Source of the DNA: Candidatus Latescibacterota bacterium
Lineage (GTDB): Bacteria > Latescibacterota > UBA2968 > UBA8231
Assembly (NCBI GenBank): GCA_965248355.1
Contig: OZ252098.1
Span: forward strand, 3,904,001-3,968,000
Direction: 5' to 3'
DNA length: 64,000 nt
Shown here: positions 13,179 to 52,906 of the stretch, in pieces
How the letters are laid out: every line of letters begins with the position of its first letter
Numbering within the stretch: the first letter of the stretch is position 1
The notes under the pieces: model-generated
What the model was told of the DNA's origin: nothing
The model's input: only the letters and a program-made list of their open reading frames with translations
The model's database searches: none
Position numbers and translations under genes: made by a program

Positions 13179-13362
13179 GGCCGGCGCTCCACCGGATCGA
13201 GTGGCGCCGGAGTCACCAACCAACACTCATCCAGGAGGCCCAGAGACCCGAGCGCCAGCGAGGGGCTCGCCATGCCCTCGATCCACCCCAAGTCGATAGC
13301 TCCCCCAAACACGCCCGGCGTACGCGCCGCCAAAGGCGCGGCCGGAGCCGCCGGCACCGCCC
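13179..13362 (+). repeat. Structured intergenic repeat, copy A (5' hairpin joined to core and right arm; left arm deleted)
   Basis: ccggcgctccaccggatcgagtggcgccggagt, catccaggaggcccagagacccgagc and cggcgtacgcgccgcc blocks shared with 43601 and 52590. Confidence 0.9.
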
Positions 13363-13389
13363 GTCCCGGGATAACCCAAGGGACACCCA

Positions 13390-14844
13390 TCAACACCGCA
13401 CCACATCCTCGACATCCTCCACCGCCAGCGTGTCCCCATGCACCGGCTGCACCGCCTCGCCCCACGCCTCCAGCACCTCTGCATCCCGCATCAGCTGGGC
13501 GCTGCGCCGCGCCACCCGCTCGGGGTCCCAGCCCGCATAGAGCTGGTCCAGCAACTCCCGCCGCACCGCGGCGCACGCGACATCGCCGGCCAGGTCGTTC
13601 CACTCGCCCGGGTCGTCCTCCAGGTTGAACAGGGCCGGAGGCGTGTCCCCGTGATAGGCATAGAGCTTCCACGGTCCCTGCCGGATCATTCGCGAGGGAG
13701 GATCGCCGCGGGTGGGGCCCAGCTCGCTGAAGGTGGTATCGGGGCGGGAGTCGTCCGGCAGGCCCCGCAGCTCGCTCCACAGAGAATGGCCGTCGGCCCC
13801 GGGCAGAGGCTCGCCGCCGGCGACTTCCACGGCGGTGGGTGCCCAATCGAGCAGATTGCAGATCGCCCGGTTCTCCACGCCCGCCGGCACCACCCCGGGC
13901 AGGCGGGCGATGAGGGGGACGCCCACCGAGCCTTCGTAGTAGTTGCTCTTCCACCAGCAGCCGTGCTCGCCGGCCATCTCCCCGTGGTCGCTGGCGTAGA
14001 CCACCAGGGTGTTGTCGCCGAGGCCGGTCTCGTCGAGCTTGTCGAGGAGCTGGCCCACCTTGCGGTCGAAGTACTCGCACAGACCGAAGTAGGCGGCCCT
14101 CGCCACGCGGATGCGCTCGGCGGGGAGGGGCTCGTCGATGCCGCGGTGCCTCTTGAAATTGCTCACCGCCGCCGGCTCCCCGGCCGGGTCGGGTTGGGGC
14201 ACGTCGACGCGGTCGTAGTAGTAGTCGTAGAGATCCCTGGGAGCGAAGAACGGGCAGTGGGGCAGCAGGAATCCGGCCACCGCGGCAAAGGGCCGGTCGT
14301 GCCCTTGCGCCTTCTCCTCCAGGTAGGCGCAAGCCGCGTCGGCGACGCGGTCGTCAAAGGCCTGGTACGTGGTGCGGCCGTGCCCGGCGATCTCGACGCT
14401 TTCGCGGGTCTGGCCTGAGGTGCTGGCGGGGATCTCCTTGAACATGGGACCGCCCGGCTGGGCGGCGCCCGGATGCAGGGCGCTGTACTCGCCGATGGGC
14501 CGGCGCTCGAAGCCGTGGCGCTGGTCGGCGCCGACAAAGTGCATGCGGCCGATCAGGGCGGTCTCGTATCCGGCGGCGCCCACGGCATGGGCCCAGGTGG
14601 GCAGGGCCGAGCTGAGGATGTGCTCGTTGAGCCAGACCTCGTTGGCGCTGGGCCGCCGTCCGGTCATGAAGGCCATGCGCGCCGGCACGCACAGGGGCGA
14701 GGGGGTGTATGCATTGACGAAGCGCATGCCCTCGCCGGCCAGGCGGTCGAGGTGCGGGGTGCGCACCACGGAATCACCGTAGCAGCCGAGGTGGAACTTG
14801 CTGTGCTGGTCGGAGAGGATGAAGAGGATGTTGGGGCGGTTCAT
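13390..14844 (-). CDS. Sulfatase (choline-sulfatase-like)
   Basis: NILFILSDQH, CVPAR formylglycine motif, GRMHF and SDHGEM. Confidence 0.93.
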   Translation of the reverse strand: MNRPNILFILSDQHSKFHLGCYGDSVVRTPHLDRLAGEGMRFVNAYTPSPLCVPARMAFMTGRRPSANEVWLNEHILSSALPTWAHAVGAAGYETALIGRMHFVGADQRHGFERRPIGEYSALHPGAAQPGGPMFKEIPASTSGQTRESVEIAGHGRTTYQAFDDRVADAACAYLEEKAQGHDRPFAAVAGFLLPHCPFFAPRDLYDYYYDRVDVPQPDPAGEPAAVSNFKRHRGIDEPLPAERIRVARAAYFGLCEYFDRKVGQLLDKLDETGLGDNTLVVYASDHGEMAGEHGCWWKSNYYEGSVGVPLIARLPGVVPAGVENRAICNLLDWAPTAVEVAGGEPLPGADGHSLWSELRGLPDDSRPDTTFSELGPTRGDPPSRMIRQGPWKLYAYHGDTPPALFNLEDDPGEWNDLAGDVACAAVRRELLDQLYAGWDPERVARRSAQLMRDAEVLEAWGEAVQPVHGDTLAVEDVEDVVRC

Positions 14845-14903
14845 GGCTTTGGACTGGCAGGCGCGAGTAATTTAGGACGCCCGATACCTCCAGCAAGAGA
14901 GCG

Positions 14904-16145
14904 ATGCAGAGCGTGAGACTCGCCAGAGGGAGCGTCCTCGAGCCCCTGGCCAACGGGGATTTCGTGCGCCTGTGGCTGGCCAACGGCCTCTGGTGGCAGG
15001 CCATGTGGATGGAGATGCTGGCCCTGGGGTGGCTCGCCCTGGAGCTGACCAACTCCCCGTGGTGGGTCCAGGTCATCGCCTTCTACCGCGCCGTTCCCCT
15101 GCTGATCGTGGGTCTCTTCGGAGCCGTGATCACCGATCGCTTCAGGCGGCGCTACATCGTCCAGATCCTGCAGCTGGTCAATGTCCTGGGGCTGGGGCTG
15201 CTGGCCCTCCTGCTCTACCATGGAGAGCTGGAGGTGTGGCACCTGTCGGTTGTGTCGCTGGTGCTGGGGGCCGCCTGGGCGCTGGACTGGCCCACCCGCC
15301 GCAGCATGGTGCCGGATCTCGTCGGCAAGGCCCGCATCGTCGACGCCATGGTGCTGGAGAACGTCATCCAGGGGATTACGCGCATAGCCGGCCCCCTGGC
15401 GGCGGGCTACGTGACCGCGGCCTATGGCAGCCTGGGCGCCCTGCTGGTGCTGGTCGGGCTGGGCACCATGGGGCTGATCCTGCTGGCCGGCATGAAGACG
15501 GACTCCAGGGCACCGGCCAGGGGCACCTTGGCGGCGGGGTGGGCCGGCCGGCAGGGATGGGCCAGTCTGCGCGCCTCGGCCCCGATCTTCGGCGTCTTCC
15601 TCGTCACCGTCCTCATGAACATCTGGACCTTCCCCTACATGAACCTGCTGCCCGTCTTCGCGCGGGACGTGTACGGCCTCGGCCCGGAAGCGATGGGGTG
15701 GCTGGGTGCCGCCGGTGGGGCCGGGACGATCGTGGGACTCGCCGCCGTCCAGCTCGGCCGCAGGAACCTGAGCAACGAGTGGGTCTTCGTGGGCGGCTCC
15801 CTGCTCTCGTGCATGGGCATCGCCGCCTTCGCCTTCAGCGGAACCCTTGGCCTCGCTCTCGTGATGCTGTTCTGCTCCGGCCTGGGGCAGGCCGGCTTCA
15901 GCATCATGCAGAGCAGCATCATCCTGGTGGAGTCCTCGGACGAGATGCGCAGCCGGGCCATGAGCACCCTGGTCGTGGCCATCGGCGTCGGCCCCATCGG
16001 CCGCCTGCAGAGCGGGGCCCTGGCCGAGACCTGGGGAGCCCAGGGAGCCGTGGGCATCATGGCCGTCCTGGGGGCGCTGGGGATTGCGGCGACGGCGGTC
16101 TTCCTGCGGGGATTCGTGGGCCGGAGAGAGCGAGCCGCCCCATGA
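14904..16145 (+). CDS. MFS transporter
   Basis: About 12 hydrophobic segments; GAVITDRFRRR motif A. Confidence 0.9.
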   Translation: MQSVRLARGSVLEPLANGDFVRLWLANGLWWQAMWMEMLALGWLALELTNSPWWVQVIAFYRAVPLLIVGLFGAVITDRFRRRYIVQILQLVNVLGLGLLALLLYHGELEVWHLSVVSLVLGAAWALDWPTRRSMVPDLVGKARIVDAMVLENVIQGITRIAGPLAAGYVTAAYGSLGALLVLVGLGTMGLILLAGMKTDSRAPARGTLAAGWAGRQGWASLRASAPIFGVFLVTVLMNIWTFPYMNLLPVFARDVYGLGPEAMGWLGAAGGAGTIVGLAAVQLGRRNLSNEWVFVGGSLLSCMGIAAFAFSGTLGLALVMLFCSGLGQAGFSIMQSSIILVESSDEMRSRAMSTLVVAIGVGPIGRLQSGALAETWGAQGAVGIMAVLGALGIAATAVFLRGFVGRRERAAP

Positions 16146-16654
16146 GAGAGAGCCGATGCGTCCTCTTCGATTGGGGCAACACCTTGATGCGGGACTTCCC
16201 GGACTACAAGGGGCCCATGGCTGTCTGGCCCCATGTCGAGACCCTGCCCAACGTCAAGGAGGTGCTCATTCAACTGCGCCCCCAGTGGACGCTGGCCCTC
16301 GCTACCAATGCCGCCGCCTCGGATGAGGCCGCCGTCTGGAGAGCACTCGAACGGGGAGGCATCGCTCCCCTGCTGGACAAGGTCTACTGTTTCCAGAAGA
16401 TCGGCCACAGCAAGCCGGCGCAGGGGTTCTTCGACTACATAGTCAGGGACCTGCCCATGGAGAGAGACCGCATCGTCATGGTAGGCGATGACTTCGAGAA
16501 CGACATCCTCGGAGCTAGCCGCGCAGGCATCCGAAGCATCTGGTTGAACCAGTCATCAGATGAAGCCAGGGTCGGGGAGTTGTACCAGACCATCCACGAT
16601 CTCCGATCCCTGCCGGATCTACTCTCCACTCTTGCCACCGACGCCGATGCTTGA
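16142..16654 (+). CDS. HAD family hydrolase
   Basis: LFDWGNTL, SKP and MVGDDFENDILGA motifs; ATGA overlap. Confidence 0.88.
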   Translation: MRESRCVLFDWGNTLMRDFPDYKGPMAVWPHVETLPNVKEVLIQLRPQWTLALATNAAASDEAAVWRALERGGIAPLLDKVYCFQKIGHSKPAQGFFDYIVRDLPMERDRIVMVGDDFENDILGASRAGIRSIWLNQSSDEARVGELYQTIHDLRSLPDLLSTLATDADA

Positions 16655-16838
16655 TCCCCGCGCCAAAGCCCCTCCATTCACGATCTCCAATCCCTGATCC
16701 CGGCATGAAAGTCCCCTCTCGCTCCCACCCACGCCCCGTCGACAAAATCCCCCGGCGCCGATTCTGCACCATTCGCTGCCGTCGCCCAACTCTCCCCTCT
16801 CTCACAGGCCCCGATGCCTACCAAAACTCTCCCTTCGA

Positions 16839-17039
16839 GGGCGGCGCCGGCGGCGCAGCCCGCGCCGAGGCGGCGCACTACGCCGGGCGGGTCAACAACC
16901 CATCCGCATCCCGAAGGCCCAGAGACCCGAGCGCAGCGAGGGGCTCGCCAGCCCTGAGGATCCCCTTGAGCGATAGTTCCACCAACCAGCACAGGCGTAC
17001 GCGCCGCCCGAGGCGCGGGCGGAGCCGCCGGCGACGCCC
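16839..17039 (+). repeat. Structured intergenic repeat, copy B (left arm, core, right arm)
   Basis: gggtcaacaacc...ggcccagagacccgagcgcagcgaggggctcgccag...cgatag...ggcgtacgcgccgcc; the two arms are complementary. Confidence 0.9.
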
Positions 17040-17068
17040 ACGCCAGGAGACCCCCCAAAGGCTGACCG

Positions 17069-18688
17069 ATGGGCAAACACGACTTCCCAAAAATCATCTT
17101 CACCGACGACGGCTGGATCTTCAGCTCGGAACCCCCGGTCTTCGAGGCCGACCTGCGCGACAAGGTGGTCGCCGGGTACGCCGGCACCGGCGGCGCCCTC
17201 TGGTGGTCGACCGGCGATCACGAGGTCTACCACTTCGAGACCCAGATCGGCGAGATCTTCGGCGCCGAGCAGCCCTCCCTCGAAGGCCTCGACGAGCTGT
17301 ATTCCTTCGTTCACTCCGCCGGCGGGGACGACGCCTATCCGAAGGTGGCGGCCAACGTGCGCTCCCTCATCGAGGAGTGCGGCGGCCCCCTGACGGCCCT
17401 GCTGCGCCTCTGCCGGGAAAGGGGCATCCCCTTCTTTCCGCGGGTGCGCATGAACAGCCACTACGTCATCGACTCCCGCCACCCGGGATACGGCAACTAC
17501 CGGCGCCGCCACCCGGACCGCCTCATCGCCCGCCCCGGGGAGCGCTTCGCCGAGGGCACCATCGAGCACGGCATCGGCACCGGCCTCGACTACGCCCACC
17601 CCGGCAACCGCGCCTTCGTCACCCGCATCATCTGCGAGTGCTTCGAGCGCTTCGACGTGGACGGCGTCGAGCTCGACTTCATGCGCCACCCGGCCTTCTT
17701 CCGCGTCGAGGAGGGGTACGCCAACCGCCACTTCATGACCGGCCTCGTGCGCGAGGTGCGCGCGCGCCTGCGGGCGGTCTCCGAGGAGCGCGGCCGCCGG
17801 CTGCTGCTCGGGGTCCGCGTGCCGCCGGGGATCGCCGACTGCAACCGCGTCGGCCTCGACATCGTCCGCTGGCTGGAGGAGGGCCTCGTCGACATCGTCG
17901 TCGTCGGGGGCGGTTTCATCTCCTTCGAGACCCCGGTCGACGAGTTCGTCGCCGCCGCCGACGGGACCGGCGCGCTGGTGTACGGATGCATCGAGGCGAC
18001 CCGGGACAGCGACGACCGCAAGCTGCGCGCCCTGACCTTCCGCTGGCTCAACGACGGCGCCCACGGCGTCTACCTCTACAACTTCTATACCCGCTCACCG
18101 GAGTGGAACCGCCGCATCGCCTCCGAGCTGACCGACCTGGCGAAGCTCCGGCGCCTCGACAAGCGCTACGAGCTCGAGACCACCGGCTCCGCGTACGGCT
18201 CCTCCGGGCACAGCAGCGCCTTCGCCCTGGCCCAGTCGCAGACGCAGCTTCCGGTGCGGCTGCAGCCGGACGACCCCGGCGAAGGACCGGTCCTGCGTCT
18301 AACCATCGCCGACGATCTCGAAGCGGCGCGTGAAGCCGGGGAGCTCGGCCCCTGCCGGCTGACCCTGCGGTTCGACGGCCTCGAGGAGAGCGACTCTCTC
18401 GCCGTCCGCGTCAACGGCGGCGAGTTGGACTGGAGGGAGGCCGAGGTTTCCTTCGACGGGTGGGAAGAGCTGAGCGCGGCCTCGCTCTTCTGGCTGAGCT
18501 ACCCCGCCGAGCCGGTGGAGCGGCACATGGAGGGATCGAGCGCCTCGTACGCGGTCACCGCGCCGCCGCTGCAACAGGGAGAGAACGAGATCGAGGTCCG
18601 CCTGCTCTCGGAAGCCCGCACCCCCGACCGCCACGTCTCCCTGACCGGCCTCGAGATCGACCTCACCTACCGAAGGCAGGACCGATGA
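17069..18688 (+). CDS. Family 10-like glycosyl hydrolase (GHL10/DUF187-like)
   Basis: RVRMNS, LDYAHP, DVDGVELDFMRH and GVYLYN motifs. Confidence 0.75.
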   Translation: MGKHDFPKIIFTDDGWIFSSEPPVFEADLRDKVVAGYAGTGGALWWSTGDHEVYHFETQIGEIFGAEQPSLEGLDELYSFVHSAGGDDAYPKVAANVRSLIEECGGPLTALLRLCRERGIPFFPRVRMNSHYVIDSRHPGYGNYRRRHPDRLIARPGERFAEGTIEHGIGTGLDYAHPGNRAFVTRIICECFERFDVDGVELDFMRHPAFFRVEEGYANRHFMTGLVREVRARLRAVSEERGRRLLLGVRVPPGIADCNRVGLDIVRWLEEGLVDIVVVGGGFISFETPVDEFVAAADGTGALVYGCIEATRDSDDRKLRALTFRWLNDGAHGVYLYNFYTRSPEWNRRIASELTDLAKLRRLDKRYELETTGSAYGSSGHSSAFALAQSQTQLPVRLQPDDPGEGPVLRLTIADDLEAAREAGELGPCRLTLRFDGLEESDSLAVRVNGGELDWREAEVSFDGWEELSAASLFWLSYPAEPVERHMEGSSASYAVTAPPLQQGENEIEVRLLSEARTPDRHVSLTGLEIDLTYRRQDR

Positions 18689-19647: not shown

Positions 19648-19655
19648 CGAGTCCT

Positions 19656-21921: not shown

Positions 21922-21994
21922 CTGGGTCCAGGTTTCGCCCCGGAGGAGGGGACCAGGGAAGGGGTCTGCCTGCGCTGCAATCGGAAGTATACGA

Positions 21995-22225
21995 CCGGAG
22001 AGAGTGTGTGGGGCGGTTCCACCCCAGGGCGGTGACGGCGGCGCAGGCCGAGCCGAGCGGGCGCACTACGCCGGGCCGGGGTCAACAACCATATTCATCC
22101 AGGAGGCCCAGAGACCCGAGCGCAGCGAGGGGCTCGCCAGCCGTCAGCACACCCCTCCGGCGATAGCTCCCCCAGCGCAGCCCGGCGTACGCGCCGCCGA
22201 GGCGCGGCCGGAGCCGCCGGCGCCG
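21995..22225 (+). repeat. Structured intergenic repeat, copy C
   Basis: gtgtgtggggcgg, gggcggtgacggcggcgcaggccgagccgag, core and right arm all present. Confidence 0.92.
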
Positions 22226-22248
22226 ACCTGCACGAGGAGGAGGCCGCA

Positions 22249-23292: not shown

Positions 23293-23342
23293 GGTACGGT
23301 ACCTCGAGCCAGTTCCCTGGGCGCTCGCCGGAATCCATCCGA

Positions 23343-34272: not shown

Positions 34273-34319
34273 GCCCGGGTACGTGCCACCGAGGCGCGGC
34301 CGGAGCCGCCGCGCGCCCC
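34273..34319 (+). repeat. Repeat family remnant I (right arm only)
   Basis: gtacgtgccaccgaggcgcggccggagccgccg, between convergent stop codons. Confidence 0.75.
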
Positions 34320-35747: not shown

Positions 35748-35760
35748 CCCGGTACCGAGA

Positions 35761-35978
35761 GGTCCCACCCCGGGGCGGTGACGGCGGCGCAGGCCGCGCC
35801 GAGCGGCGCCCTTGCGCCGGGCCGGGGTCAACAACCAACACGCATCCAGGAGGCCCAGAGACCCGAGCCCCCGGCGAGGGGTCCGCCAGCCCCACGGATC
35901 ACTCTCAAGCGATAGATCCATCAGCCAGGCCCGGTGTATGCGCCGCCGAGGCGCGGCCGGAGCCGCCGGCGCCGCCCC
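35761..35978 (+). repeat. Structured intergenic repeat, copy D
   Basis: Left arm ggggcggtgacggcggcgcaggccgcgccgag, core, and right arm ending gccgccggcgccgcccc. Confidence 0.92.
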
Positions 35979-36021
35979 TTGCTGCGGCGGCCGCGCTATC
36001 TTCCACCAGTGGAGAACAGCC

Positions 36022-37272: not shown

Positions 37273-37345
37273 CGCCGGAACGGGGTCAACCGAGCATAGC
37301 GAGGGGCTCGCCAAGTCCCCTGGACAACCCTTCAAGCGATAGCTC
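37273..37345 (+). repeat. Repeat family remnant G (collapsed core)
   Basis: cggggtcaac fused to cgagcatagcgaggggctcgcca...agcgatagctc. Confidence 0.75.
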
Positions 37346-37356
37346 TACCGATGGCC

Positions 37357-38782: not shown

Positions 38783-39190
38783 CTACGAGCCCGTCGATCG
38801 TCGCTGCACGTAGCTGAGGGCAGCGCGCGCGAGCAGGCCGGACCGCGTCTCCCCTTCCCGGGCCGCCGCCTCGTCTACGATCGCCAGGACCCGGGCCGGC
38901 ACGGTGATGTTGATCCGCTTTGCCTTGCTCGACAGCTTGGAGATGTCGACCGCAACCAGCGCCCAGATCCCATCCCTGTCCTCGTTGGCCTGGTGTACCT
39001 CGAGCGGCGCTTGCTCGGGGACCGGCTCGCCGTCCATGAGCAATCCCTCGATGTGGCAGGCGACAGCCTCGTGAGCGGATTCGATCGCTTCTTCGAACGT
39101 ATCTCCGGCCGAGAAGCAACCGGGCAGATCCGGCACGGTGACTCCATGACCGCTCTCTTTGTCTTTGTGAATCACGGCTGGAAAGCGCAT
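38783..39190 (-). CDS. hicB: HicB family antitoxin with RHH domain; no intact hicA adjacent
   Basis: GVTVPDLPGCFSAGDTFEEAI and KRINITVP motifs. Confidence 0.88.
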   Translation of the reverse strand: MRFPAVIHKDKESGHGVTVPDLPGCFSAGDTFEEAIESAHEAVACHIEGLLMDGEPVPEQAPLEVHQANEDRDGIWALVAVDISKLSSKAKRINITVPARVLAIVDEAAAREGETRSGLLARAALSYVQRRSTGS

Positions 39191-39278
39191 TGTGTCTGTG
39201 ATCTTCATGAGTGTGTAATGTACGCACCGCTCCCCGATACTGCGGTCGCAACGCGGGTCGCTTCGGAACGGCGGCCCA

Positions 39279-39364
39279 CCAGGCCAGCGCACCACCGGAT
39301 CGAGTGGCGCCCTTACGCCGGGCCGGGGTCAAACAAAACCCATCCAGAAGGCCCAGAGACCCGA
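39279..39364 (+). repeat. Repeat family remnant H (5' hairpin fused to end of left arm plus half core)
   Basis: ccaccggatcgagtggcgc|ccttacgccgggccggggtcaa...catccagaaggcccagagacccga. Confidence 0.85.
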
Positions 39365-40107
39365 ACTTCAAGACCCTGCGCACCGTATTCGAGGCCGGCG
39401 TCCGCGATGCCTCCGTCATCAGCACTTCGCACGTGGGATGGCCGGCGGACACCTCGCTGCTGTTCTGGGCGGTGGGCCGGCCGGTCGAGTTCACGGAGTT
39501 CGCCCTCGCGTACGGGGCCGACCCGGAAGCGCCGTTCTCGGGCAACGGGGAGCGCGGCAACACCCCCTTGCAGGAGGCCGCGGCGCGTTTCGGCACCGGG
39601 CGGTGGAACTCCGACGTCGCCGATACGGTCCGCGCTCTCCTCGGGCACGGGGCGCACTACGACATCTTCTCGGCGTGCGGCATGAACGACCTTGACCGGG
39701 TGCGCGAGCTGGCCCGGGAGGAGACCGAGGCCGTTGCGCAGCAGGGAGAGGCGGACATGACGCCCCTGCACTGGGCGGCGCGTTCCGGCTCGGACCGTTG
39801 TCTGAAATGGCTGCTGCGGCATGGCGCCGAGGTCGATGCCGGGACCAGTACCGATCGAACCCCCCTGCACCTGGCGTCCGAGAGCGGAAACGTCGAGGCG
39901 ATCTGGCTGCTGGCGGAGCACGGCGCCGATCTCGACACGCAGGACAGGAAGGGGCGCACGCCCCTCCACAGGGCCGCGTACGAGGGCGGGCTGGATGCGG
40001 CCGAGGTGCTCATCGTCCTGGGGGCGGACAGGAGCCTGAGGGCGAAGTCCGGCAAGAGGCCGCTGCAGGTGGCGCGGCTGGATTGCAGGCACCTGAAAGA
40101 GCAGTGA
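39361..40107 (+). pseudogene. Ankyrin repeat protein, 5' end apparently replaced by the repeat remnant
   Basis: TPLHWAA, TPLHLAS and TPLHRAA ankyrin repeats; no credible start or RBS after the repeat junction. Confidence 0.65.
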
Positions 40108-40221
40108 AGAGCGGCCGATACCTCAGGTCATGTGTCCCCGACGGAGGAGGTTGCGCAAGGTCCCCGGTCGCTTTACTCTGGAAATCGGGGGTGGGGAGGC
40201 AGACAATCTGTTCCGGAAGCC

Positions 40222-40321
40222 GCACGAGGAAGCCATCACATATTTCGGAAGGAAGGAACCCTATCAGGTGCGACAGGTCCGTCGCGTGATTTTGAAATAC
40301 AGACTGGAGGAGCCAGACTGA
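40222..40321 (+). pseudogene. hicA: HicA toxin remnant (5'-truncated, internally deleted, frameshifted)
   Basis: RGSHHIFRKEG joined out of frame to PYQVRQVRRVILKYRL, directly upstream of hicB. Confidence 0.75.
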
Positions 40322-40534
40322 ATGTACAAATACGAGATCATTCTCTATTGGAGCGACGCCGACAGCGCTTTCGTGGCGGAGGTGCCGGAGCTATCTGGAT
40401 GCATGGCTCATGGCGACACGCAGGAAGCCGCTCTGAGACACGTCAATGAAGCCACAGGTCTTTGGATCGATACCGCAACAGAGTACGGCGACCCAATTCC
40501 GGAACCCAAGGGCGAACGTCTGATGCTGGCATAG
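40322..40534 (+). CDS. hicB: Short HicB family antitoxin
   Basis: YEIILYWS...FVAEVPELSGCMAHGDT.EAAL...IPEPKG; GGAGG RBS. Confidence 0.9.
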   Translation: MYKYEIILYWSDADSAFVAEVPELSGCMAHGDTQEAALRHVNEATGLWIDTATEYGDPIPEPKGERLMLA

Positions 40535-40561
40535 CCCCGCGCCGCCAAGCCACCAAGCCGT

Positions 40562-40712
40562 CGCCCCACCCGATCAAGTGGCGCCGCCGAGGCGCGGCTG
40601 GAGCCGCCGGCATCGCCCCCTGCCGGACCCCCTTCCCACCCCTATCTTCAACTCCATTCGATCCATCCATCCGATCCGCACCCGGACACCCAAATGCCCA
40701 CCTTCGACTACC
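40562..40712 (+). repeat. Repeat remnant J plus ~90-bp flank homologous to the ilvD leader and first codons at 52907-53002
   Basis: ccacccgatcaagtggcgcc|gccgaggcgcggctggagccgccgg, then atcttcaa...cacccggacacccaaATGcccaccttcgactacc. Confidence 0.82.
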
Positions 40713-40728
40713 ACGGGAGAAAACAGCC

Positions 40729-41610: not shown

Positions 41611-41617
41611 GGACGGC

Positions 41618-42730: not shown

Positions 42731-42815
42731 CGGTGGAGGGGGTGCATGCGCCAAGGCCCTGAAGGAGCTGGTTCCTCGAGCGGTCAAGCAAGCATGTGGC
42801 GGCCTCCCCTGACTG

Positions 42816-43463: not shown

Positions 43464-43600
43464 GTGATCCCAGGTCGCGTAGACCTCTGAGCCGTCACCT
43501 GGCCCACGGGAGCTGATCTCACTCCCGGTGCCATGTACGACGCTATCCGCGCTTCAGGGAAGTGGATCCTCGAGTAGTCCGGGCTCCCCCACCAACAGCA

Positions 43601-43920
43601 CCCCCCCAGACCGGCGCTCCACCGGATCGAGTGGCGCCGGAGTTACCCCCGGCCCAGAACCACCCCCAGGCGCCACACGGTCCAGAAAGAGGGTGTGTGG
43701 GCGGTCCCCACCCCGGGCGGTGACGGCGGCGCAGGCCGAGCCGAGCGGCGCATTGCGCCGGGCCCGGGGTCAACAACCACCCACATCCAGCAGGCCCAGA
43801 GACCCGAGCGCAGCGAGGGGCTCGCCAGCCCCACGAATCCACCCCAGGCGATAGCCCCCACCAACCAGGCCCGGCGTACGCGCCGCCGAGGCACGGCCGG
43901 AGCCGCCGTCACCGCCCCCT
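43601..43920 (+). repeat. Structured intergenic repeat, full-length copy E
   Basis: All modules present; perfect 16-bp inverted repeat at 43715-43730 / 43902-43917. Confidence 0.93.
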
Positions 43921-44856
43921 GCCAGACCCCCCCCCGTCACTTCTCGGCGACCAGCTTCACAGGCTTCCAGATTCCTCCGCCCCAGGGGCCGTAGTCGACG
44001 ACGCGAACGGCGATCGTGTTGTCCCGCCCCTCCGCGAGAAGCTCCGTGACGTCGATGCGGAATCGCTTCTTCCACGGATCGCCGAACGCGTATGCCCAGC
44101 CATCCATGTTGTGCTGCCCGGCCAGGTGGCCGTTGACGTACACTTCGGCTCCGTGTGCGACGGCCCCGAAGGCCAGGTAGATCTTCTTGCCCGCGGGCAG
44201 GGCCGGCGCGCGAAGTGTCTGGCGATACCAGCCGTACCCGTCGTAGGCGCGGTAACCGTGTTCATCCCACGGCAGGCCCGAGTCGATCAGGAGCCAGCCG
44301 CTGTCGTCGAACTCGTGTGCAGACCATCCCTTCCCAAGCCCGAGGTTGGCGCCGTCGGCCCGGAACCGCCATCGGCTGGACAGCTCCGTGAGCGGCGCGT
44401 GATCCGACCACAGGTCGCCGAAGGTGGCCTTCTCGTCATAGGGCACGAAGGCGAGTGGGTGTGGCGTTGGCGTCACGCCGTCTGGCGTGGAAGCGATGTC
44501 GGTGCGTCTGAGGTTGGTGTTTGCGCTTACCGGCTTGAATGCGATATAAGGGTCGGGGTTTCGCAAGGCAGGCGGATCGGGATGGGGTTGGCGGGCGGCG
44601 AGCAGGGCGTCCCGATAGCCTCGGGGGATGAACGTCCCGTGGGCACCCTTGTCCCACCAGTCACATCGATCGTTGTACACCCACACGTATTCGTCAGTGT
44701 GCCGCAGGGCCTGGTGAAGGGCGTACTCGAATTCTTCCGGGGTATAGTAGTTGCGGCCGGTCTTTTCCGAGGAGAAGTCGAAGGGCATCTGCGGGCTGAG
44801 GATCAGCGCAAAGGCCACCCGAAAGTGTTTGTCGAACTGCTCTTCCCGAACGCGGC

Positions 44857-46280
44857 GGCATTGTCCCGATCTTAGTTGAAATAGCACAGGCTCCCATCGT
44901 TACGTTTGATACGAGAAATCCCCAAGAAGCCTCGTATCGGTAACCCAAGGAGCCTGCCATGAGCAAGCTACAAGCACGGAAGAAGGGCGTCAAACGGACC
45001 GTGGCCATCGGCCCCGTGAACCGCCAAGCCACCGCGTCGATGGACGATCTGGAGACTCGCATCGAGGTCATCCAGCTGCTGATCCCTTTGGGTCTGCAGG
45101 CGGTCTCGGAGGAGCTGCAGCAGTCGGTCGAGGCCTTGGCCGGACCTCGGTATCAGCGCAAGGGTCCGGATCAGGCGTTGCGCCGCTGGGGGGCGCAGGC
45201 CGGGTCGGTGTACCTGGGCGATCAGAAACTGCCGGTCGAGGTGCCGCGCGTGCGCGATGTGGTCCGCGGCACCGAGGTCCCGCTGGAGGCCTATCAGGCC
45301 CTGCAGACGCCGAGGCAGATGGACCAGGGGCTGTTGTTGCGGGTGCTGAAGGGCCTGGCCACGCGCAACTACGAGGCCTGCGCCGAGACCGTCCCGCAAG
45401 CCTTCGGTCTGTCCCGTTCCTCGGTCTCTCGCCGGTACGTGAAAGGCACGGCGCGCAAGCTGGCCGAATTCCAGCAGCGATCCCTGGAAGGCTACGACCT
45501 GGTGGCGCTGTTTCTGGACGGCAAGAGCTTCGCCGACGAGGAGATCCTCATCGCCCTGGGTGTGACTCTGGAGGGCCAGAAGGTGCCCTTGGGCTTCGTG
45601 CAGGCGGCCACCGAGAACGAGCGCGTCTGTCGCCGCTTCCTGGCGGAGCTGGTCGAGCGGGGCCTGCAATACGAAGCCGGGCTGCTCGTGGTGATCGATG
45701 GAGGCCAGGGCCTGTACAAGGCGGTGCGGTCGGTGCTTCAAGGCCATGCCTGCGTGCAGCGATGCCAGTATCACAAGCGCCAGAACGTGGTCTCGTACCT
45801 GCCCAAGAGCGAGCAGGCCGGCCTTCGTCGAAAGCTGGAAGCGGCGTATGGGCACTCGACGTACGAGGAGGCCCAAGCCGCCCTGGAGGCGCTGAAACCG
45901 GGGTTGCAGTTGATGAACCAGTCGGCCCTGCGCAGCTTGGAGGAAGGCCAGCAAGAAACCCTCACGCTCCACCGCCTGGGCCTGATGCCGATGCTGAAGG
46001 CCTCCTTCCGTACCACCAACTGTATCGAGAACGTCAACAGTCTCCTGGAGCAGTTGACGCACAACGTGCGGCGCTGGACCAACTCGTCGCAGCGTCACCG
46101 CTGGGTCGCCACGGCGTTGCTTGACATCGAACCTCGCCTCCGCCGGGTCAACGGCTACCACCACCTGCCGATGCTCCGGCAAGCGCTCCAAGCCGAGCTC
46201 GGCATCCAGCAGCTCGCGATGACGGGCTGACTCATCCACTCGAGCCTGGGCTACGTTTCAACTGAGAATGGGACTTGCCC
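44857..46280 (+). mobile_element. IS256 family insertion sequence
   Basis: 8-bp TSD AACGCGGC (44849-44856, 46281-46288); imperfect IRs ggcattgtcccgatcttagttgaaa / gggcaagtcccattctcagttgaaa. Confidence 0.93.
44959..46230 (+). CDS. IS256/Mutator family DDE transposase
   Basis: LFLDGK, VIDGGQGL, QRCQYHK.QN and RTTNCIENVN motifs; AAGGAG RBS. Confidence 0.93.
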   Translation: MSKLQARKKGVKRTVAIGPVNRQATASMDDLETRIEVIQLLIPLGLQAVSEELQQSVEALAGPRYQRKGPDQALRRWGAQAGSVYLGDQKLPVEVPRVRDVVRGTEVPLEAYQALQTPRQMDQGLLLRVLKGLATRNYEACAETVPQAFGLSRSSVSRRYVKGTARKLAEFQQRSLEGYDLVALFLDGKSFADEEILIALGVTLEGQKVPLGFVQAATENERVCRRFLAELVERGLQYEAGLLVVIDGGQGLYKAVRSVLQGHACVQRCQYHKRQNVVSYLPKSEQAGLRRKLEAAYGHSTYEEAQAALEALKPGLQLMNQSALRSLEEGQQETLTLHRLGLMPMLKASFRTTNCIENVNSLLEQLTHNVRRWTNSSQRHRWVATALLDIEPRLRRVNGYHHLPMLRQALQAELGIQQLAMTG

Positions 46281-48286
46281 AACGCGGCTGAGGCTGCGGA
46301 GAGTCTGCTCGGCGAAGCGGCGGGCGGCGGCGAACGAGACGGGCGACCGGTAGTCGAGGCCCATCTGGCCGGTGATGCGCGCGTTGCCCGTGCACTCGGA
46401 GAGCAGGCCGTCGACGAAGGCCCGAAGCAGCGCGAAATGGGCGCCGTCGTCCCTGGCTCCGCGGGACTCGGCGGGGCCGTTGATGAAGACGATGTGAAGG
46501 TCGGGATGCACCTCGTTGATGGCGCGCATGATCTGGGCGCCGCGCTTGAAGGCCTGGTCGGCGTACTCGCGGGCTGTTCTTGTCTCTTCGTACTTCAGAC
46601 CCCCGTAAGTCCACAGGTTCGTGCCGTACCATGCCGAGTCGGAGAACAGGATGCCGGCCAGGCCCGTCCGTTTGCAAAAATCGGCGGCGACCTTCCAATT
46701 GTGCACGACCGCGTCGAACTCCGGGTCGAACCAGTCAGGTCCCACGATGCTCTTTTGGCCCGTGGTGAGGTAGGTCAGGAGGAAGTTGTCCTTGAACTGC
46801 TTCGCCCCGGCTTGAGCGGCCTGCACGTCGGCGATACCGACGGCCATGTCCTCGATTCGGAGCCGGTCCGTGCGGAAGAGCCGTCCGAGGGCCTCGGACT
46901 TCGTGCCGTCTTCGCGATGCAGCGCCGGGTAGAGGGTCACGCCGTCGAAGGCGGCCATCTCTTCCAGCCACCCGACGTCCTGGCGAAATCCACGGGGATT
47001 CCGGCGCCCGCTGCCGAACATGATGATCTTCTTCGACTCACTGATCGGACCACCCTCGAGAGCTGTGGCGGCCCCGGTCTCTCGGGGTGCGGCATACGCG
47101 GACAGCTTGCGGCGCTTCGGCAGCGCGGGGACCCGCCCGCGGACCCTCTCGAGGGCATCCCTGTAGGCCTGTGCGATGTATATGCCGTCTTCCTCCCGGT
47201 CCCACCACTGGCACTTTCCGTCCGTGTACACCCAGACGTACTCGTCGGTGTGCTCGAGCGCCTGGTAGAGGGAATACTCGAACTCCTCGGGCGTGTAATA
47301 GTACCCTTCCGCCTCTCCCCTCAGCAGGCCATCGACGTTCTCGTAGTCGCCGTCAAAGCTGTACTGCCTGTAGCCCCCGATGTAGAAGGGGAAGGCGACC
47401 CTGAAATGCCTCTCGAACTTCGCCGGTACGCGGCTGATGTCGCGCATGTCCTCTTTCATGAGGCGGCGCGCCGCGGCGTAGTCTGACGCCGAGCGAAATC
47501 CGTAGGCCCTCTCGTAGCCGTCGATGATCTGCGCCTGGCCCGTGCACTCCGAGAGCAGGCCATCGAAGAATGCCCGCATCAGTCCATACGCCGCGTCGAA
47601 GTCACCCAGTTGATCGCCATGCCCCTCGCCGGGACCGTGGAGGGACAGAATCTTGATGTCGGGGAACACCTGGTTTATCGCGCGCATGATCTGCGCCCCG
47701 CGCAAGAAAGCCTGGTCAGCGTATTCCTTCGCGCTCTTCGTACCGTGGTACTTGAGCCCAATGCCCCGGTACGTCCACAAATCGGCGCCGTAGTAGACCT
47801 CGTCGTCGAACATGATCCCCATCAGACCACTGCGTTTGCAGAAGTCGGCGGCGACCTTCCAATTGTGCACGACCGCGTCGAATTCCGGGTCGAACCAGTC
47901 GGGCGGATCGATGGCGGCGACGCCGGTGGTCAGGTGGGCCAGCAGGAAGTTGTGCTTGAAACGCGTCGCCTTGGCGCGCACGGCCTGCAGGTCGGCAATG
48001 GCCTCGCCGAAGTCCTCGATGTCGTGCCGCTCAGTCCGAAAGAGCCGGCCGATAACGTCGCTGCGCGCGCCGTGGAGGGCCTGCGGGGGATAGACCGCGA
48101 CACCGTCAAAGGCCCCCAGTTTTTCCATCCGTTCAATGTCCCGCAGCAGCGTGCTCGGGCGTCGATGGCCACCTCCCATCAGGATGATCTTCTTCGACGG
48201 ATCGATTGACTGGCCCTCAGCCTGTCCAAGGGTGTTTCCAAGACCCGCCACAGCCCACAACAACGCCATCGCCACCGGTCTCGTCT

Positions 48287-49489
48287 TCATGGTCGATCTC
48301 CGTCGAAGAAACCGGCATCCTCTTCGGACAGGTGCCGCTTCGCCTCCTCGACGACAAACTCCACCCCCAGTCCCGGGGAATCCCACACTGCGATATGGCC
48401 GTCGGCGACGATCGGGTCGGGCAGCCCGGTGACCATGTCGAGCCAGGACTCCTCGTACCCGCCCGGCATCTCGAAGGCGATGTAGTTCTGCGGCAGGGTG
48501 GCGGCGAGATGGACGTGGGCCGCCAGTCCGAAGAGCCCGTCGATCACTCCGTGGGGGGCCATCAGGATGCCGTGGAGGTCGGCGTACTCGGCGATCCACT
48601 TGGTCTCCGCTATCCCGCCGACATCGGCGGGGTCGGGGCCGACGACGTTCACCGCCTGCTTCTCGAAGAGCTCCTTGAAATGCTGCCGCAGGTAGATCTG
48701 CTCCCCGGTGTGGATCGGCGTCGAGGTGCTGCGCGTCACCTCCCGGTAGAGGTCGGGGAGCACGTACGGGACGTAATCGCCGGTGATCATGTCCTCGAGC
48801 CACATCAGGTTCAGCGGCTCCACGGCCCGGGCCAGCCGTATCGAGTCGGGGACCGTCATTCCCGGACCGCAGTCGAGGGCGAGGCCGACCTCGTCTCCCA
48901 GCTCCTCCTTCATCGCCTCGGCGCAGGCGATCACGTGCTTCAGGCCCCGCTCCGTCAGCGGGCCCCGGTTGGCGTGCCAGCGGCCGCCCGAGCTCTCCCC
49001 GTAGAAGAAGCCGGGGACGTTCGCGGGCATGCCGCTGTGGAAGGAGACGCCCATCTTGAACAGGGTGAACCCCTGCGGCAGCTCCCTGGCGGCGCGGGCG
49101 GCGGCGGCGTACTCCTCGGGCCGGGAGCCCGTTACCGGAACCGGAGAGCCGGTCAGGTAGACCCGCACCCGGTCGCGGATCTTGCCGCCGAGCAGCTTGT
49201 ACACCGGAACCCCTGCGGCCTTGCCGGCGATGTCCCAGAGCGCCATCTCGATGGCGCTGACGGCACTGCCCCAGGGCTTGAATCCGCCGAGCCGTCGGAT
49301 GCCGAGCATGACGCGCTCGACGTCGGTCGGGTCCATGCCGAGAACGAGGTCGCGATAGAAGAGGACGTGGGGCTTGAGGTAGGACTTGGAGGACTCCACC
49401 TGCCCCGTGCCGACGATCCCCTCGTCCGTGAGGATGCGGACGATGGGATGGCGGCCGATGACGGCGCACTTCAGATCGACAATCTTCAT
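48287..49489 (-). CDS. Mandelate racemase/galactonate-dehydratase-like enolase superfamily protein
   Basis: SAIEMALWDIAGKA, LALDC, WLED and IHTGEQ motifs. Confidence 0.9.
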   Translation of the reverse strand: MKIVDLKCAVIGRHPIVRILTDEGIVGTGQVESSKSYLKPHVLFYRDLVLGMDPTDVERVMLGIRRLGGFKPWGSAVSAIEMALWDIAGKAAGVPVYKLLGGKIRDRVRVYLTGSPVPVTGSRPEEYAAAARAARELPQGFTLFKMGVSFHSGMPANVPGFFYGESSGGRWHANRGPLTERGLKHVIACAEAMKEELGDEVGLALDCGPGMTVPDSIRLARAVEPLNLMWLEDMITGDYVPYVLPDLYREVTRSTSTPIHTGEQIYLRQHFKELFEKQAVNVVGPDPADVGGIAETKWIAEYADLHGILMAPHGVIDGLFGLAAHVHLAATLPQNYIAFEMPGGYEESWLDMVTGLPDPIVADGHIAVWDSPGLGVEFVVEEAKRHLSEEDAGFFDGDRP

Positions 49490-50397
49490 GACAGCCTCTG
49501 GGCGACCTCCACCGGGAGGCCGTCTCCTGCGTCGAGGGTGATGGACCGGATGGGCACGCCCAGAGCGAGATCGCGCTCCCCAGGCGGCGTGTCGTGGGCG
49601 ATCTCCCCGGCAAGGGCGTCCACGTCGTCGGTCCAGAGCCCGAACGACCCCACGACGCCGCGGCCAAGACCGTCGGCGTTCCCGCCGTCTTTCCGCCCAC
49701 GCAGCTCAATGTCGCACATGCCAGCGACGAAGACGTACCCCTCGTGCGTGTCGCTGTCCGAGTGGTCGATAGCGCGCAGCCCCAGCTCATCCCCGTACAA
49801 CCCCTTCCCCCTGGCGATGTCCGGGCACTCCATGGCCATGTGATCGAAACCCTTGAGGAGGCCGCCGGCGGAGAGATTGGCGATCCGCTGCTTCTCCCGC
49901 CGCCTCTCCTGGTTGTGCAGCCTCGGGTCCACGATCTCGGAGATCTGGATGGGGAAGCCGTTCGGATCGACGAACTCCAGCAGGCTCCTCTGCATGTAGG
50001 CGTGGTCCATCGGCTGGACGATGGGGCCGTCCTTCGTGGCGCGGACCCTGTTGGACGCGAAGAAGCCCTCGAGGTGGGAGAAGGCATGGTAGTTGCCCTC
50101 GACGAAGAAGGACCAGTGTCCGACCGAGCCATAGGCCTGCCCCGTCCTCTCGCCCTCGGACGACACCAGCATGGGGGCGGCCTCGTCCTCGTGCAGAACC
50201 AGGAAAGAGTCGCCGACCTGGAGGACGGCTTCGCGTTCGCCGCTCTCGGCGGCGGCGCCATCCACCCATTCGCCCTTCTCGTTCTGCACAGCCGTGGTGT
50301 TCTGAAGCTCGGTGAGGCCGAGGTGCTTGCCGTAGACCTCCCGGCACTCGTCCCAGACCCGCGTCCGCATCTCGATGTAGGCGATGCCTGTAATCAT
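49486..50397 (-). CDS. VOC/glyoxalase superfamily protein
   Basis: Duplicated VOC pattern (FVDPNGFPIQISE, FDHMAM). Confidence 0.7.
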   Translation of the reverse strand: MITGIAYIEMRTRVWDECREVYGKHLGLTELQNTTAVQNEKGEWVDGAAAESGEREAVLQVGDSFLVLHEDEAAPMLVSSEGERTGQAYGSVGHWSFFVEGNYHAFSHLEGFFASNRVRATKDGPIVQPMDHAYMQRSLLEFVDPNGFPIQISEIVDPRLHNQERRREKQRIANLSAGGLLKGFDHMAMECPDIARGKGLYGDELGLRAIDHSDSDTHEGYVFVAGMCDIELRGRKDGGNADGLGRGVVGSFGLWTDDVDALAGEIAHDTPPGERDLALGVPIRSITLDAGDGLPVEVAQRLS

Positions 50398-50536
50398 GGG
50401 GGCCGATTGTAGGGTCAGCGGGCGTGCAGCACAATCCGAGGGCGGTCGCCTCAGAACCAGGCCACTCGGTCCAAAGAGGGGTGGTCTCCGGGAACTTCCA
50501 GGCCCTACGGCTTCGCGACAGAGTGCGGGGGCGCGT

Positions 50537-51013
50537 TCATCTTTCGCACAAGTCGCGGCGTCGAAGCAGTTTCTTGTGGGTATCCGTGAAGCGTTTGGTC
50601 CTGCGTGTAGTGTAGATTTTGCCCGGCGGATTGCTTACTAACTGTCTGTTATGGAAGTCCTCACAGAGCCTCTTCTTCCTCTCACTGCTCTCATTGGTAT
50701 ACAGTAGACGGGCACCGCTGACTTGGGCCAAGGCAATGATGTGGGAATCATCAGAAACGCACTCAGCCTTGATCTCCCGCGCCCTGGCATTGACTTGATC
50801 TGCGTTCACGAATTTCAATCTCCCCGCTTCTCCCAACGTACTTGCCCACTCCCTGAACTCTGGCGAGCCTCTCTGAAGCTCCCGAAGCAGCTTCCCACCG
50901 ACTACCAAGCGTCCTGCTGCTGCGTTGATCCAACCATAGAACTTCTCTCCTGCCGGAGACTGCCTGGGGCCGAAGACTTCATTGGCCACATTCGCATCAA
51001 CAATTGCACACAT
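50537..51013 (-). CDS. PIN-domain-like nuclease
   Basis: AIVDANV at N-terminus and SDDSHIIALA..SGARLLYTNE resemble PIN acidic motifs. Confidence 0.65.
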   Translation of the reverse strand: MCAIVDANVANEVFGPRQSPAGEKFYGWINAAAGRLVVGGKLLRELQRGSPEFREWASTLGEAGRLKFVNADQVNARAREIKAECVSDDSHIIALAQVSGARLLYTNESSERKKRLCEDFHNRQLVSNPPGKIYTTRRTKRFTDTHKKLLRRRDLCER

Positions 51014-51017
51014 CCCC

Positions 51018-52391
51018 TCATTTCCCCTTAGATGGCTGCTTCTTCCAAATAGACCGCTCCATTTCATCTATGAAAAACTGCCGATATACCGATGGGGCAT
51101 TCAGGACATTCCCTTCGCCGTCAATTTCCAGGGAGTGAATACGGACGTCGAGGTCGCGCCGTTCGAAGAAGAGGATAGAAATGTCTTCGGGCTTCAGGTT
51201 TCCCTCGCCGTCTCGGACATCCATCCGCACACGACTGAGCAGGTGATCGCTATGAGTTTCGACTACCAACTGCCGGTGAGGGTTGGCGACTTGACAGAAC
51301 AAGCTACCAAGAGCGGCCTGGGCGCTGGGATGGAGATGTACTTCGGGTTGCTGCAACAGAAACATGGACGGGGCATCGGAACGAAGCAACTCGGTAATGA
51401 CGGGGAGCACTTGGCTTACCCCATATCCTACGTCAATTAGGTTCCTTTGGAGTCCCTTGACTTTCCTCCCCGCTCTGCGGATCTGCACCTGGAAGGGTTC
51501 TGTCTCCTTCTTCCCGAAAGACTTCACCGAGATTTCATCAAAAAGGCCGGCAGCGTGCCCGAAAGTCTCCAGAGCGTCTTTGAGGGTTGCCCACTGCTCT
51601 CTTGAGCGGAAGTGCAAGCTGGACAGATACATGGGGATGTACTCGCCTTCGGGGTCCTGTGTCGGACGTGCAGGATCGTATGTGCGACGTGGCTTGGACC
51701 GAACTGGTGCGCTGGCATAAGGGCCATCCCCTTGAGAGGGAATGAGTTCTACGCGACTGAAGCGAACTACCTCTTCGACTTGCTCGAGATCCGCTTTGGT
51801 AGGCTCGCGCGAACCGGAGACTGCTGTCAACGGATGGTTGTCTTCGGTTGCATTTATCGAATGCCAAAGCCTCGAGAAAAGAGAAAAGGGTTCCCTATGG
51901 GCCCAATCCAGGAAACGGAGGGTTTCGTCAGACAGGTCACACTTCCAAGAGCCGCTCTTGGTTCCAAAGCGGGTCTCTTTGTGTGAGGGTCTGAATTCGA
52001 TCCACACATCCTTCTTGGAGAGGCGTCTGCGCTCTGGAACGGGGACAGCGTCCCTTTTCTCAAAAGTTGCTTCAAACCGAAATGGTTCATTCCGTATGAG
52101 TTCAGCCAGGCTAGATTGAAGCCGGTACTCAAAACCGGCCTGAAAAGTATCTGGTCGACCGGCGCGCCCTCCTCGGTAATGGGCGATCTCATCGAAGCTA
52201 CCGAGGTCGTAGGGAGCTTCCTTGAAGTTGGGATCCTTTTCCTGATAGGCAATTTCCCACAGTGCTTTGATCAGGGCCAGAAAGGAGGTCTTGCCTGTGC
52301 TGTTTTCGCCGACGAGCAGTGTCAGGGGTGCCAAGCGGGCGCCCTGTTTTTCCCCGAAACAGCGAAAGTTCTCTATTGTCACTCTGTCCAT
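51018..52391 (-). CDS. ABC-type (AAA_15/AAA_21-like) ATPase, DUF3696-like
   Basis: IENFRCF, GENSTGKT, DVGYGVSQVLP, QQPEVHLHP and VETHSDH motifs. Confidence 0.88.
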   Translation of the reverse strand: MDRVTIENFRCFGEKQGARLAPLTLLVGENSTGKTSFLALIKALWEIAYQEKDPNFKEAPYDLGSFDEIAHYRGGRAGRPDTFQAGFEYRLQSSLAELIRNEPFRFEATFEKRDAVPVPERRRLSKKDVWIEFRPSHKETRFGTKSGSWKCDLSDETLRFLDWAHREPFSLFSRLWHSINATEDNHPLTAVSGSREPTKADLEQVEEVVRFSRVELIPSQGDGPYASAPVRSKPRRTYDPARPTQDPEGEYIPMYLSSLHFRSREQWATLKDALETFGHAAGLFDEISVKSFGKKETEPFQVQIRRAGRKVKGLQRNLIDVGYGVSQVLPVITELLRSDAPSMFLLQQPEVHLHPSAQAALGSLFCQVANPHRQLVVETHSDHLLSRVRMDVRDGEGNLKPEDISILFFERRDLDVRIHSLEIDGEGNVLNAPSVYRQFFIDEMERSIWKKQPSKGK

Positions 52392-52589
52392 TGGATGCCC
52401 CTCTTCCTTGCGCGGCACCGGCGGAGTATGCGGGGAGCACTACTTTGATGGCCCTGAGGATAGAAGGGGGAGACAACGATGGCAAGGTAGAGGGTGTCGG
52501 GAGCCCCCTGGATGTGGGAGTGTGCTTGGGAGGCCGGGTTGTTGGGGGTAGTCACGGACCAGTGTAGGGACTGGCTTTAGATGCACGAA

Positions 52590-52906
52590 CCCCCCCCAGG
52601 CCGGCGCCCCACCGGATCGAGTGGCGCCGGAGTCACCCCCGGCCCAGCACCCCCACCGGGCGCCACCCGGCCCAGAAACAGTGTGTGTGGGCGGGTCCCC
52701 ACCCAGGGCGGTGACGGCGGCGCAGGCCGAGCCGAGCGGCGCATTACGCGGGCCGGGGTCAACAACCAACCTCATCCAAGAGGCCCAGAGACCCGAGCCC
52801 AGCGAGGGGCTCGCCAGCCCCACGAACCACCCCCCGTCGATAGATCCACCACGAAGGCCCCGCGTACGCGCCGCCGAGGCGCGGACGGAGCCGCCGGCAC
52901 CGCCCC
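52590..52906 (+). repeat. Structured intergenic repeat, full-length copy F
   Basis: Colinear with copy E over ~310 bp. Confidence 0.93.

Follow-up and report, generated by a model that had tools for sequence, protein, structure and literature searches.

A one-stranded array of structured ~330-nt repeats between rearranged gene modules in a Candidatus Latescibacterota genome

The stretch analyzed here (hereafter the window) comprises 64,000 nt of contig OZ252098.1, positions 3,904,001 to 3,968,000, and is numbered from its first base. It belongs to the 5.5-Mb genome of a Candidatus Latescibacterota bacterium, assembled as a single contig (genome G000, contig C1; other genomes are likewise designated by number). 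Between window positions 13179 and 52933, the plus strand carries an array of copies of a repeat of ~330 nt, separated by multi-gene modules on both strands. The genes between the window copies encode a sulfatase, an MFS protein, PhyH, an enolase-like protein, ECF sigma factors, CysS, HicB, an AAA/PIN pair and an IS256 element. A profile search of the whole genome placed 12 sites at E<0.01 between C1:3896388 and C1:3956933, i.e., 12 close copies within 60.5 kb, all on the plus strand. Two further copies (G000:3896388 and G000:3902545) precede the window, and the best match outside the array had E=0.34. The copies occur in all four orientations of the neighboring genes, including between two genes of the opposite strand. 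The initial annotation had called the family dispersed; instead, 12 of its 13 members in G000 occupy this one stretch on one strand, the 13th being a diverged copy between sufB and sufC (G000:2119726-2119899, minus strand).

The ten window copies listed in the initial annotation were all recovered and aligned, and profile E-values of the array copies span 1e-3 for the smallest fragment to 1e-94. Full-length copies are found at 43594..43942 (E=2.6e-94) and at 52591..52933, the latter being the last of the array and lying upstream of ilvD. The copy at 13172..13372, in which the 5' hairpin is fused to the core via an internal deletion, is full length at the equivalent junction in G002, G006 and G007. 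A core copy with long stem and central hairpin and without the 5' module lies at 16828..17053, at a junction common to four genomes; the one at 21999..22229 retains the linker, and at the equivalent G006 junction two copies flank a GNAT gene; that at 35760..35982 starts with the GGTCC linker. Fragments comprise a right-arm piece at 34277..34311, the weakest of the ten (E ~1e-3); a central hairpin with a CGATAG block at 37289..37354, between an EutQ-like cupin gene and cysS; a piece at 39268..39366 in which a deletion at GGCGCC microhomology has brought the 5' hairpin next to the inner left arm; and one at 40550..40639 in which a deletion at GCGCC microhomology has brought it next to the right arm. 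At the latter junction, G002, G006 and G007 have a full-length copy. All of these lie on the plus strand. Partial copies derive from microhomology deletions and from tandem doubles inside the element.

The fixed module order, complementary arms and A/C-rich spacers described previously were all borne out. The element opens with a 5' module, followed by a linker whose last bases are GGTCCC. A left arm of ~50 nt comes next, then the first spacer, the central GAGAC...GGCTC hairpin, another spacer and the right arm. In the last copy, the 5' module (52599..52666, plus strand throughout) is a GTGGCGCC...GGCGCCAC stem with an inner CCGG hairpin, and the linker occupies 52681..52705; it is the start point of several 5'-truncated copies and the place where an ISCR/IS91-like end joins in G005 and G008. 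The left and right arms of the long stem lie at 52706..52754 and 52856..52905, and the central hairpin, with the loop variant CCA in this copy, at 52788..52815 between spacers of ~36 and ~45 nt. The 5' hairpin as initially drawn pairs in 154 of 178 cells (87%); the alternative pairing of GTGGCGCC with GGCGCCAC downstream of it does so in 222 of 229 (97%). The C/A-rich spacers are conserved in length (28–37 and 37–53 nt) and free in sequence. In the full-length copy ending at 43942, the central mini-hairpin (43803..43819, plus strand) reads CCC-GA-GC-GCA-GC-GA-GGG, with tandem G·A pairs and a GNA triloop.

Among 37 array-type cores the long stem covaries, nine of its 51 pairs showing changes on both sides, where shuffles gave 2.8±1.1 and none of 500 reached the observed count. 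In a deep alignment of 28 diverse members, whose structure was taken from the alignment itself, 22 of 28 pairs change on both sides, compared with 8–15 in slid controls. Five G·A mismatches are retained in 36–37 of the 37 copies and the central loop is GNA in 33 of them; at diverged loci, some of them orthologous, C-GNA-G recurs within the central hairpin at 22 of 33, on differing stems. The length of this hairpin varies from 15 to 35 nt among members. The DNA folding z-score of one copy was -4.8 on the plus strand and -1.1 on the minus strand. An excerpt of PMC13037366 states that GCGNAGC mini-hairpins, whose stability is far higher in DNA than in RNA, are found in single-stranded DNA (ssDNA) origins and priming sites, among them the G4 and ssiA sites, and are poorly bound by single-strand-binding protein (SSB). 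The covarying stem, the invariant G·A mismatches, the fixed-length A/C spacers and the C-GNA-G-capped hairpin together lead us to predict that the element folds as ssDNA rather than as RNA; of the two options offered in the initial annotation, the ssDNA element is thus favored over a non-coding RNA.

BLAST detected the repeat in six of the nine congeners of G000. The near-complete genomes G006 and G007 carry 15 sites in 77 kb and 13 sites in 65.5 kb, respectively, in the syntenic region and on one strand, and no copy was present in 394 kb of flank of the G007 array. A diverged copy in G005 gave rise to a second subtype and to covariance models, of which model R2, scored on 18–36 candidates per genome with strict filters such that distant members may be missed, matches 12 of 76 genomes of the bacterial family. 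These are 10/10 genomes of genus g1 and 2/2 of g6, i.e., 2 of its 18 genera; in a phylum sample, R2 matches 11 of 151 genomes. Diverged copies number 1–15 per genome and occupy sites retained across species, such as sufB/sufC and an rpsU-like/RNase D-like site (the latter labels being read from sequence). They are frequently located within operons, in sense orientation, e.g., at sufB/sufC and rny/ymdB-like genes.

Beyond these genomes, 26 of 27 matching loci in GTDB contigs came from the genus of G000, and the 27th has the central hairpin only. In that locus (L070:3960-4060, from a Polyangiaceae metagenome-assembled genome) the hairpin lies, as judged by eye, inside an attC-like site. Exact element motifs were found in none of the metagenome contigs searched; viral contigs gave one match, inside a coding region, plasmids four short matches at chance level, and phages none. 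No published description of the repeat family was found in a mostly open-access literature, outside of which supplementary motif tables could hold it. The family is real and apparently undescribed, and we give about even weight to the view that the array represents one subtype of an old strand-specific repeat family, multiplied into a single polar array. Another intergenic repeat family in G000 has 22 dispersed copies, with a median match of 75 nt, and several smaller families were seen as well.

Across six orthologous G006–G007 pairs, the two arms differ by 5.9% and 4.2% and the central hairpin by 3.8%, compared with 27.7% for the spacers and 16.7% for four-fold sites (8046 sites) between the two genomes. 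Since stems and hairpin stay well below the four-fold divergence, each copy is either under constraint or corrected from others. Copies cluster mostly by junction and not by genome. Concerted evolution was rejected, as 294 of 300 label permutations reached the observed value. In line with the initial annotation, no target-site duplication was seen: in the two full copies checked, the longest word shared by the flanks is 5 nt, in low-complexity C runs. The suggested likeness to MITEs (miniature transposable elements with inverted repeats) fared less well, for the arms are internal and carry invariant mismatches instead of forming terminal inverted repeats, duplications are lacking, one strand is used, and orthologous copies stay in place under constraint. 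Upstream of a copy in G007 (G007:C1:2705215-2705603), several tandem repeats of a unit containing the 5' foot of the stem were noted.

Gene order changes more densely within the array than in its flank. Between G007 and G000, nine order-changing breakpoints fall in the 65.6-kb array and four in the 394-kb flank (p=1e-5), a ~13-fold higher density; counting all events, 16 are in the array and 30 in the flank (p=4e-4), and 9 of the 16 array events adjoin a copy. A 501-aa gene located between two copies in G007 and G002 is relocated upstream in G000, and the GNAT gene flanked by two copies in G006 corresponds to a single copy in G000. The ECF and PhyH–EutQ modules are exchanged in G006. In G006, G002 and G000, a copy and the enolase-like gene have a 973-aa gene between them, which IS256 splits in G000; in G007 they do not. 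One G006 copy carries ~45 nt that resemble, by eye, the left flank of another site. The junctions are imprecise, and no common switch point is visible in recombinant junction pairs, in which informative sites are few. An empty-site comparison, proposed as a check in the initial annotation, yielded no clean empty site among six junctions aligned; the apparent empty sites are replacements.

Several further features were recorded in and beside the array. The ilvD gene after the last copy (window 52984-53400) is internally deleted in G000, in which no intact ortholog was found; loose ends in other sequencing runs continue into an intact ilvD. The IS256-family element at window 44849-46280 has an 8-nt duplication and is absent in three other runs. 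Several low-GC toxin–antitoxin-type and AAA-ATPase genes adjoin copies at window 38783-40534 and 50537-52418, and in the G006 and G007 arrays. Directly to the right of the array, a brxL gene and a likely BREX-type island begin (window 62054-64000 onward), which are absent at this place in G006 and G007.

The skew minimum of G000 lies at 3.752 Mb, and in G000, G006 and G007 the nearest copy is 137–139 kb from a site that we take to be parS-like, pointing away from it. Given this skew minimum, the element strand is probably the lagging-strand template. At four-fold sites up to 350 nt downstream of copies, G>C substitutions on the element strand occur at 0.208 per site-branch (25 events), compared with 0.061 far away, and over 12 independent loci, with ilvD dropped, the near-minus-far skew averages +0.21 against a null of ~0.04±0.2. 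Three controls weaken this halo of C over G: the skew at the ilvD 5' end is seen also in genomes without the element, that at the sulfatase 3' end is similar in G012, and local skew is overdispersed genome-wide. We regard the strand-specific G-to-C excess as a lead only.

No dedicated enzyme was detected, in agreement with the initial annotation, which had noted that the window holds no cognate enzyme; its proposal of a structured element that is non-autonomous is supported. Integron integrases were found in none of five genomes above the TIGR02249 cut-off, and the tyrosine recombinases of G000 are XerD-like, XerC-like and Cre-like only. The XerC-like protein (G000:C1:2237543-2238547) apparently lacks the usual catalytic motif residues, as judged by eye, and the Cre-like recombinase gene lies close to the G000 skew maximum. 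Broken integron-integrase-like pieces were noticed in G001 (C147:53853-54477 and C8:80514-80732); the surrounding 31 kb examined contain no element. No dif-like consensus was located. The Y1 HUH transposase (PF01797) was found in none of five genomes, and in five others as one 38-residue fragment (G003), not beside an element; TnpB (PF07282) was found in none of ten. IS110 is missing from the array genomes and present in one of ten genomes, with no element beside it. GIY-YIG gives a single match per genome in nine of ten genomes (none in G003), within a long UvrC-like open reading frame of at least 628 aa, and neither an Ssn nuclease nor a small stand-alone GIY-YIG protein was found in array genomes. 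Reverse transcriptase, in two of five genomes, is encoded far from the array, and so is a patchily distributed serine resolvase, also in two of five.

The sole enzyme found physically joined to the element is an ISCR/IS91-like transposase, whose best NCBIfam match is ISCR clade Ia, below the cut-off of that model. At 5 of 18 loci, its 5' (terIS-side) end abuts the stem foot. These loci represent three independent sites (G005:C442 with G008:C13; G131:C29; G014:C81 with G131:C95), although the element matches at G014:C81 and G131:C95 are weak (E 6e-5 and 1e-3). The junctions are on the strand that such elements transfer. A GT(C/T)C motif precedes the stem within 20 nt in 20 of 36 copies, against a background of 16%. 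An excerpt of PMC13181058 gives CTTG, GTTC and GTCC as IS91-family targets, with no target-site duplication and with one-ended transposition that co-mobilizes adjacent DNA. The element and ilvD occur together in differing chromosomal settings in G000, G005 and G131. The possibility that the 5' module is an oriIS was examined and rejected: it is unlike the oriIS end of the G000 elements, and no oriIS motif was present in three array regions.

Taken as a whole, these observations suggest, with roughly even confidence on our part, that the copies act as ssDNA-folding recombination anchors for the gain, loss and reordering of the intervening gene blocks, i.e., as an integrase-free cassette array. 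The element strand, as lagging-strand template, would fold when exposed at the replication fork, and the folded site might then stall synthesis or suffer a cut from a single-strand nuclease. Repair, either through homologous recombination of direct copies with each other or by way of microhomology at the hairpin feet, could subsequently excise, duplicate or swap modules, and incoming or excised DNA would need a resident copy as its landing site. Because landing would need a resident copy, new copies would appear only beside old ones, in the same direction, without target-site duplication and without a fixed crossover point. The anchor model would in this way account for confinement, polarity, missing duplications and imprecise joins, and for how cysS and ilvD could be captured although no dedicated integrase is present. 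The model does not extend to what maintains the exact fold.

A number of results weigh against recombination anchors of this kind. Just three of the nine order-changing breakpoints adjoin a copy. Eleven junctions are common to two to four genomes, not counting a twelfth label pair that arose artificially from ilvD overlap, and many are unchanged across three to four species, so that turnover is slow. Contigs from eight sequencing runs show strain variation, and among the contig joints listed (15 of 64) no usable copy-to-copy excision joint was evident. No cutting enzyme was identified in the array clade in the families searched; the IS91 zinc domain was found in none of G002, G004, G006 and G007, and no ISCR remnants were found in the arrays. 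In the other clade, copies are spread over many contigs, and their orientation, assigned via G000 orthologs, is mixed. Support for the lagging-template orientation comes from two independent loci, namely the array and sufB/sufC. As to the fold, raw minimum free energy fails to separate the strands (the plus strand is lower in 19 of 37 copies), and pairing counts on one alignment (A4) are inflated, the structure having been taken from its own first row.

Other explanations account for parts of the same evidence. The direct orientation of copies at a single locus, the long imperfect hairpin with invariant mismatches and bulges, and the toxin–antitoxin and low-GC genes between copies would all suit site-specific recombination sites with an attC-like fold, whose recombinase is unrecognised or lost. 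attC sites carry an inverse core and span 50–145 nt. The corresponding RYYYAAC...GTTRRRY pair, 50–145 nt apart, occurs in 0 of 80 copy-strands (core motif from an excerpt of PMC8876359). With the integrase search and the recombinase complement of G000 also against it, with multi-gene modules on both strands that include cysS and ilvD, and with no fixed crossover position visible, we consider this explanation unlikely. A similarly low probability is assigned to mobilization by ISCR/IS91-like rolling-circle transposases, for which the element would be a terIS-side appendage or a preferred target, carried along with downstream genes by read-through. The three independent stem-foot junctions on the transferred strand, the enriched GT(C/T)C before the stem and the varied settings of the element with ilvD speak for it. 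Against it, 13 of the 18 transposase loci have no element, four array genomes have no transposase, and the confinement of copies to 60 kb would not follow from rolling-circle insertion by itself. The lack of an oriIS in the 5' module and the arrays, together with the missing zinc domain in G002, G004, G006 and G007, disfavors a simple ISCR origin, and targeting of the fold by ISCR elements is more likely than descent from them.

The element could also be a structured non-coding RNA, or else the leader or trailer of an mRNA, whose copies multiplied by local duplication; the rearrangements would then reflect ordinary repeat homology. Covarying stems, an excess of G-T over A-C cells (30 to 17), an RNA folding z-score of -2.8 and the sense-strand location of diverged copies within operons are what such an RNA would give; its loops are GNA triloops and not GNRA or UNCG tetraloops, and the array copies stand in every orientation to their neighbors. 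The earlier statement that the element cannot be assigned to a named RNA class was upheld, as none of 4227 Rfam models matched (the window at gathering score, 13 loci even at E 1–5), and we hold the RNA explanation to be improbable. Less probable again is a host replication signal, such as a single-strand origin or a priming or restart site with SSB-sized spacers, selected in place with the array as a by-product. Spacers kept in length and free in sequence, long-retained orthologous diverged copies, the mini-hairpins at priming sites and their poor SSB binding, and the downstream G>C excess are consistent with it; a distribution over two genera, a copy number ranging from 1 to 15, and the lack of an apparent reason for 12–15 signals in one 60-kb stretch are not.

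A stronger form of the anchor model may be put forward tentatively, as possible and with clearly less confidence than the anchors themselves: an integrase-free analogue of the integron, in which a new class of ~330-nt folded-ssDNA sites would actively drive the acquisition and reordering of multi-gene modules, including core genes, at a single origin-proximal locus. An unrecognised host enzyme, or ISCR-like HUH transposases homing to the stem foot, would act on the sites, and a strand-specific G-to-C footprint would be left in flanking genes. Integrons are the textbook bacterial array of reorderable genes and depend on one enzyme family. If the proposal is true, a polar array of conserved ssDNA folds without an integrase would be a second route to such an array, in a little-studied phylum. 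It raises the question of whether ISCR/IS91-type HUH enzymes, described as recognizing only a tetranucleotide, target a structured site, and of which protein recognizes a fold whose GNA loops, G·A mismatches and spacer lengths persist despite drift of its sequence. Should the array be merely a local bloom of an old REP-like family, it would still represent an unannotated element with strong covariation.

Among known systems, integron arrays and clusters of attC sites lacking integrases (CALINs) share with the element array a single locus, direct repeats flanking exchangeable modules, an imperfectly paired ssDNA hairpin in which unpaired bases are conserved, and toxin–antitoxin genes, as far as an excerpt of PMC8876359 describes them. 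Unlike these, the array has no IntI and no GTTRRRY core, its sites are ~330 nt long with a three-way fold, its modules are multi-gene, on both strands and include cysS and ilvD, and its junctions are imprecise. Repetitive extragenic palindromes (REPs), bacterial interspersed mosaic elements and REPINs with their TnpA(REP)/RAYT transposases, as well as IS200/IS605 ends, resemble it as non-autonomous intergenic hairpins without target-site duplication, as ssDNA substrates and in a link to the lagging template (excerpt of PMC6006769). Unlike REPs of 21–65 nt, the element is 5–10 times longer and has no GTAG tag at the hairpin foot (GTAG occurs anywhere in just 3 of 40 copies), nine of ten genomes of the genus lack the Y1 transposase, and the copies form one polar array at a single locus, in contrast with the genome-wide spread of REPs. 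Ssn-related motifs (SRM, with NTS, CGTC REPs and SsnA) also have GCGNAGC-type hairpins clustering around variable genes, according to an excerpt of PMC11893778; the element differs in having no CGTCATT-type tagged 30-mer, with GIY-YIG confined to the long UvrC-like frame.

With ISCR/IS91 elements, for which gene capture by read-through is characteristic, the element shares strand specificity and the lack of target-site duplication; unlike them, it has neither an oriIS motif nor a transposase, and most ISCR-like copies in these genomes have no element. Single-strand origins and ssDNA promoters (G4 ori, ssiA, Frpo/ssi repeats) are comparable in their long strand-specific fold with GNA mini-hairpins, and plasmid leading-region repeats are similar to the element in size. 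Unlike these origins and promoters, the element has a GC-rich stem without a -35/-10 look-alike, is chromosomal and has neighboring genes on both strands. Although it thus falls outside integrons, REP/RAYT systems, SRM/Ssn systems, MITEs and ISCR derivatives by the features that define each of them, the element array works like an integron array built of REP- or attC-like ssDNA sites.

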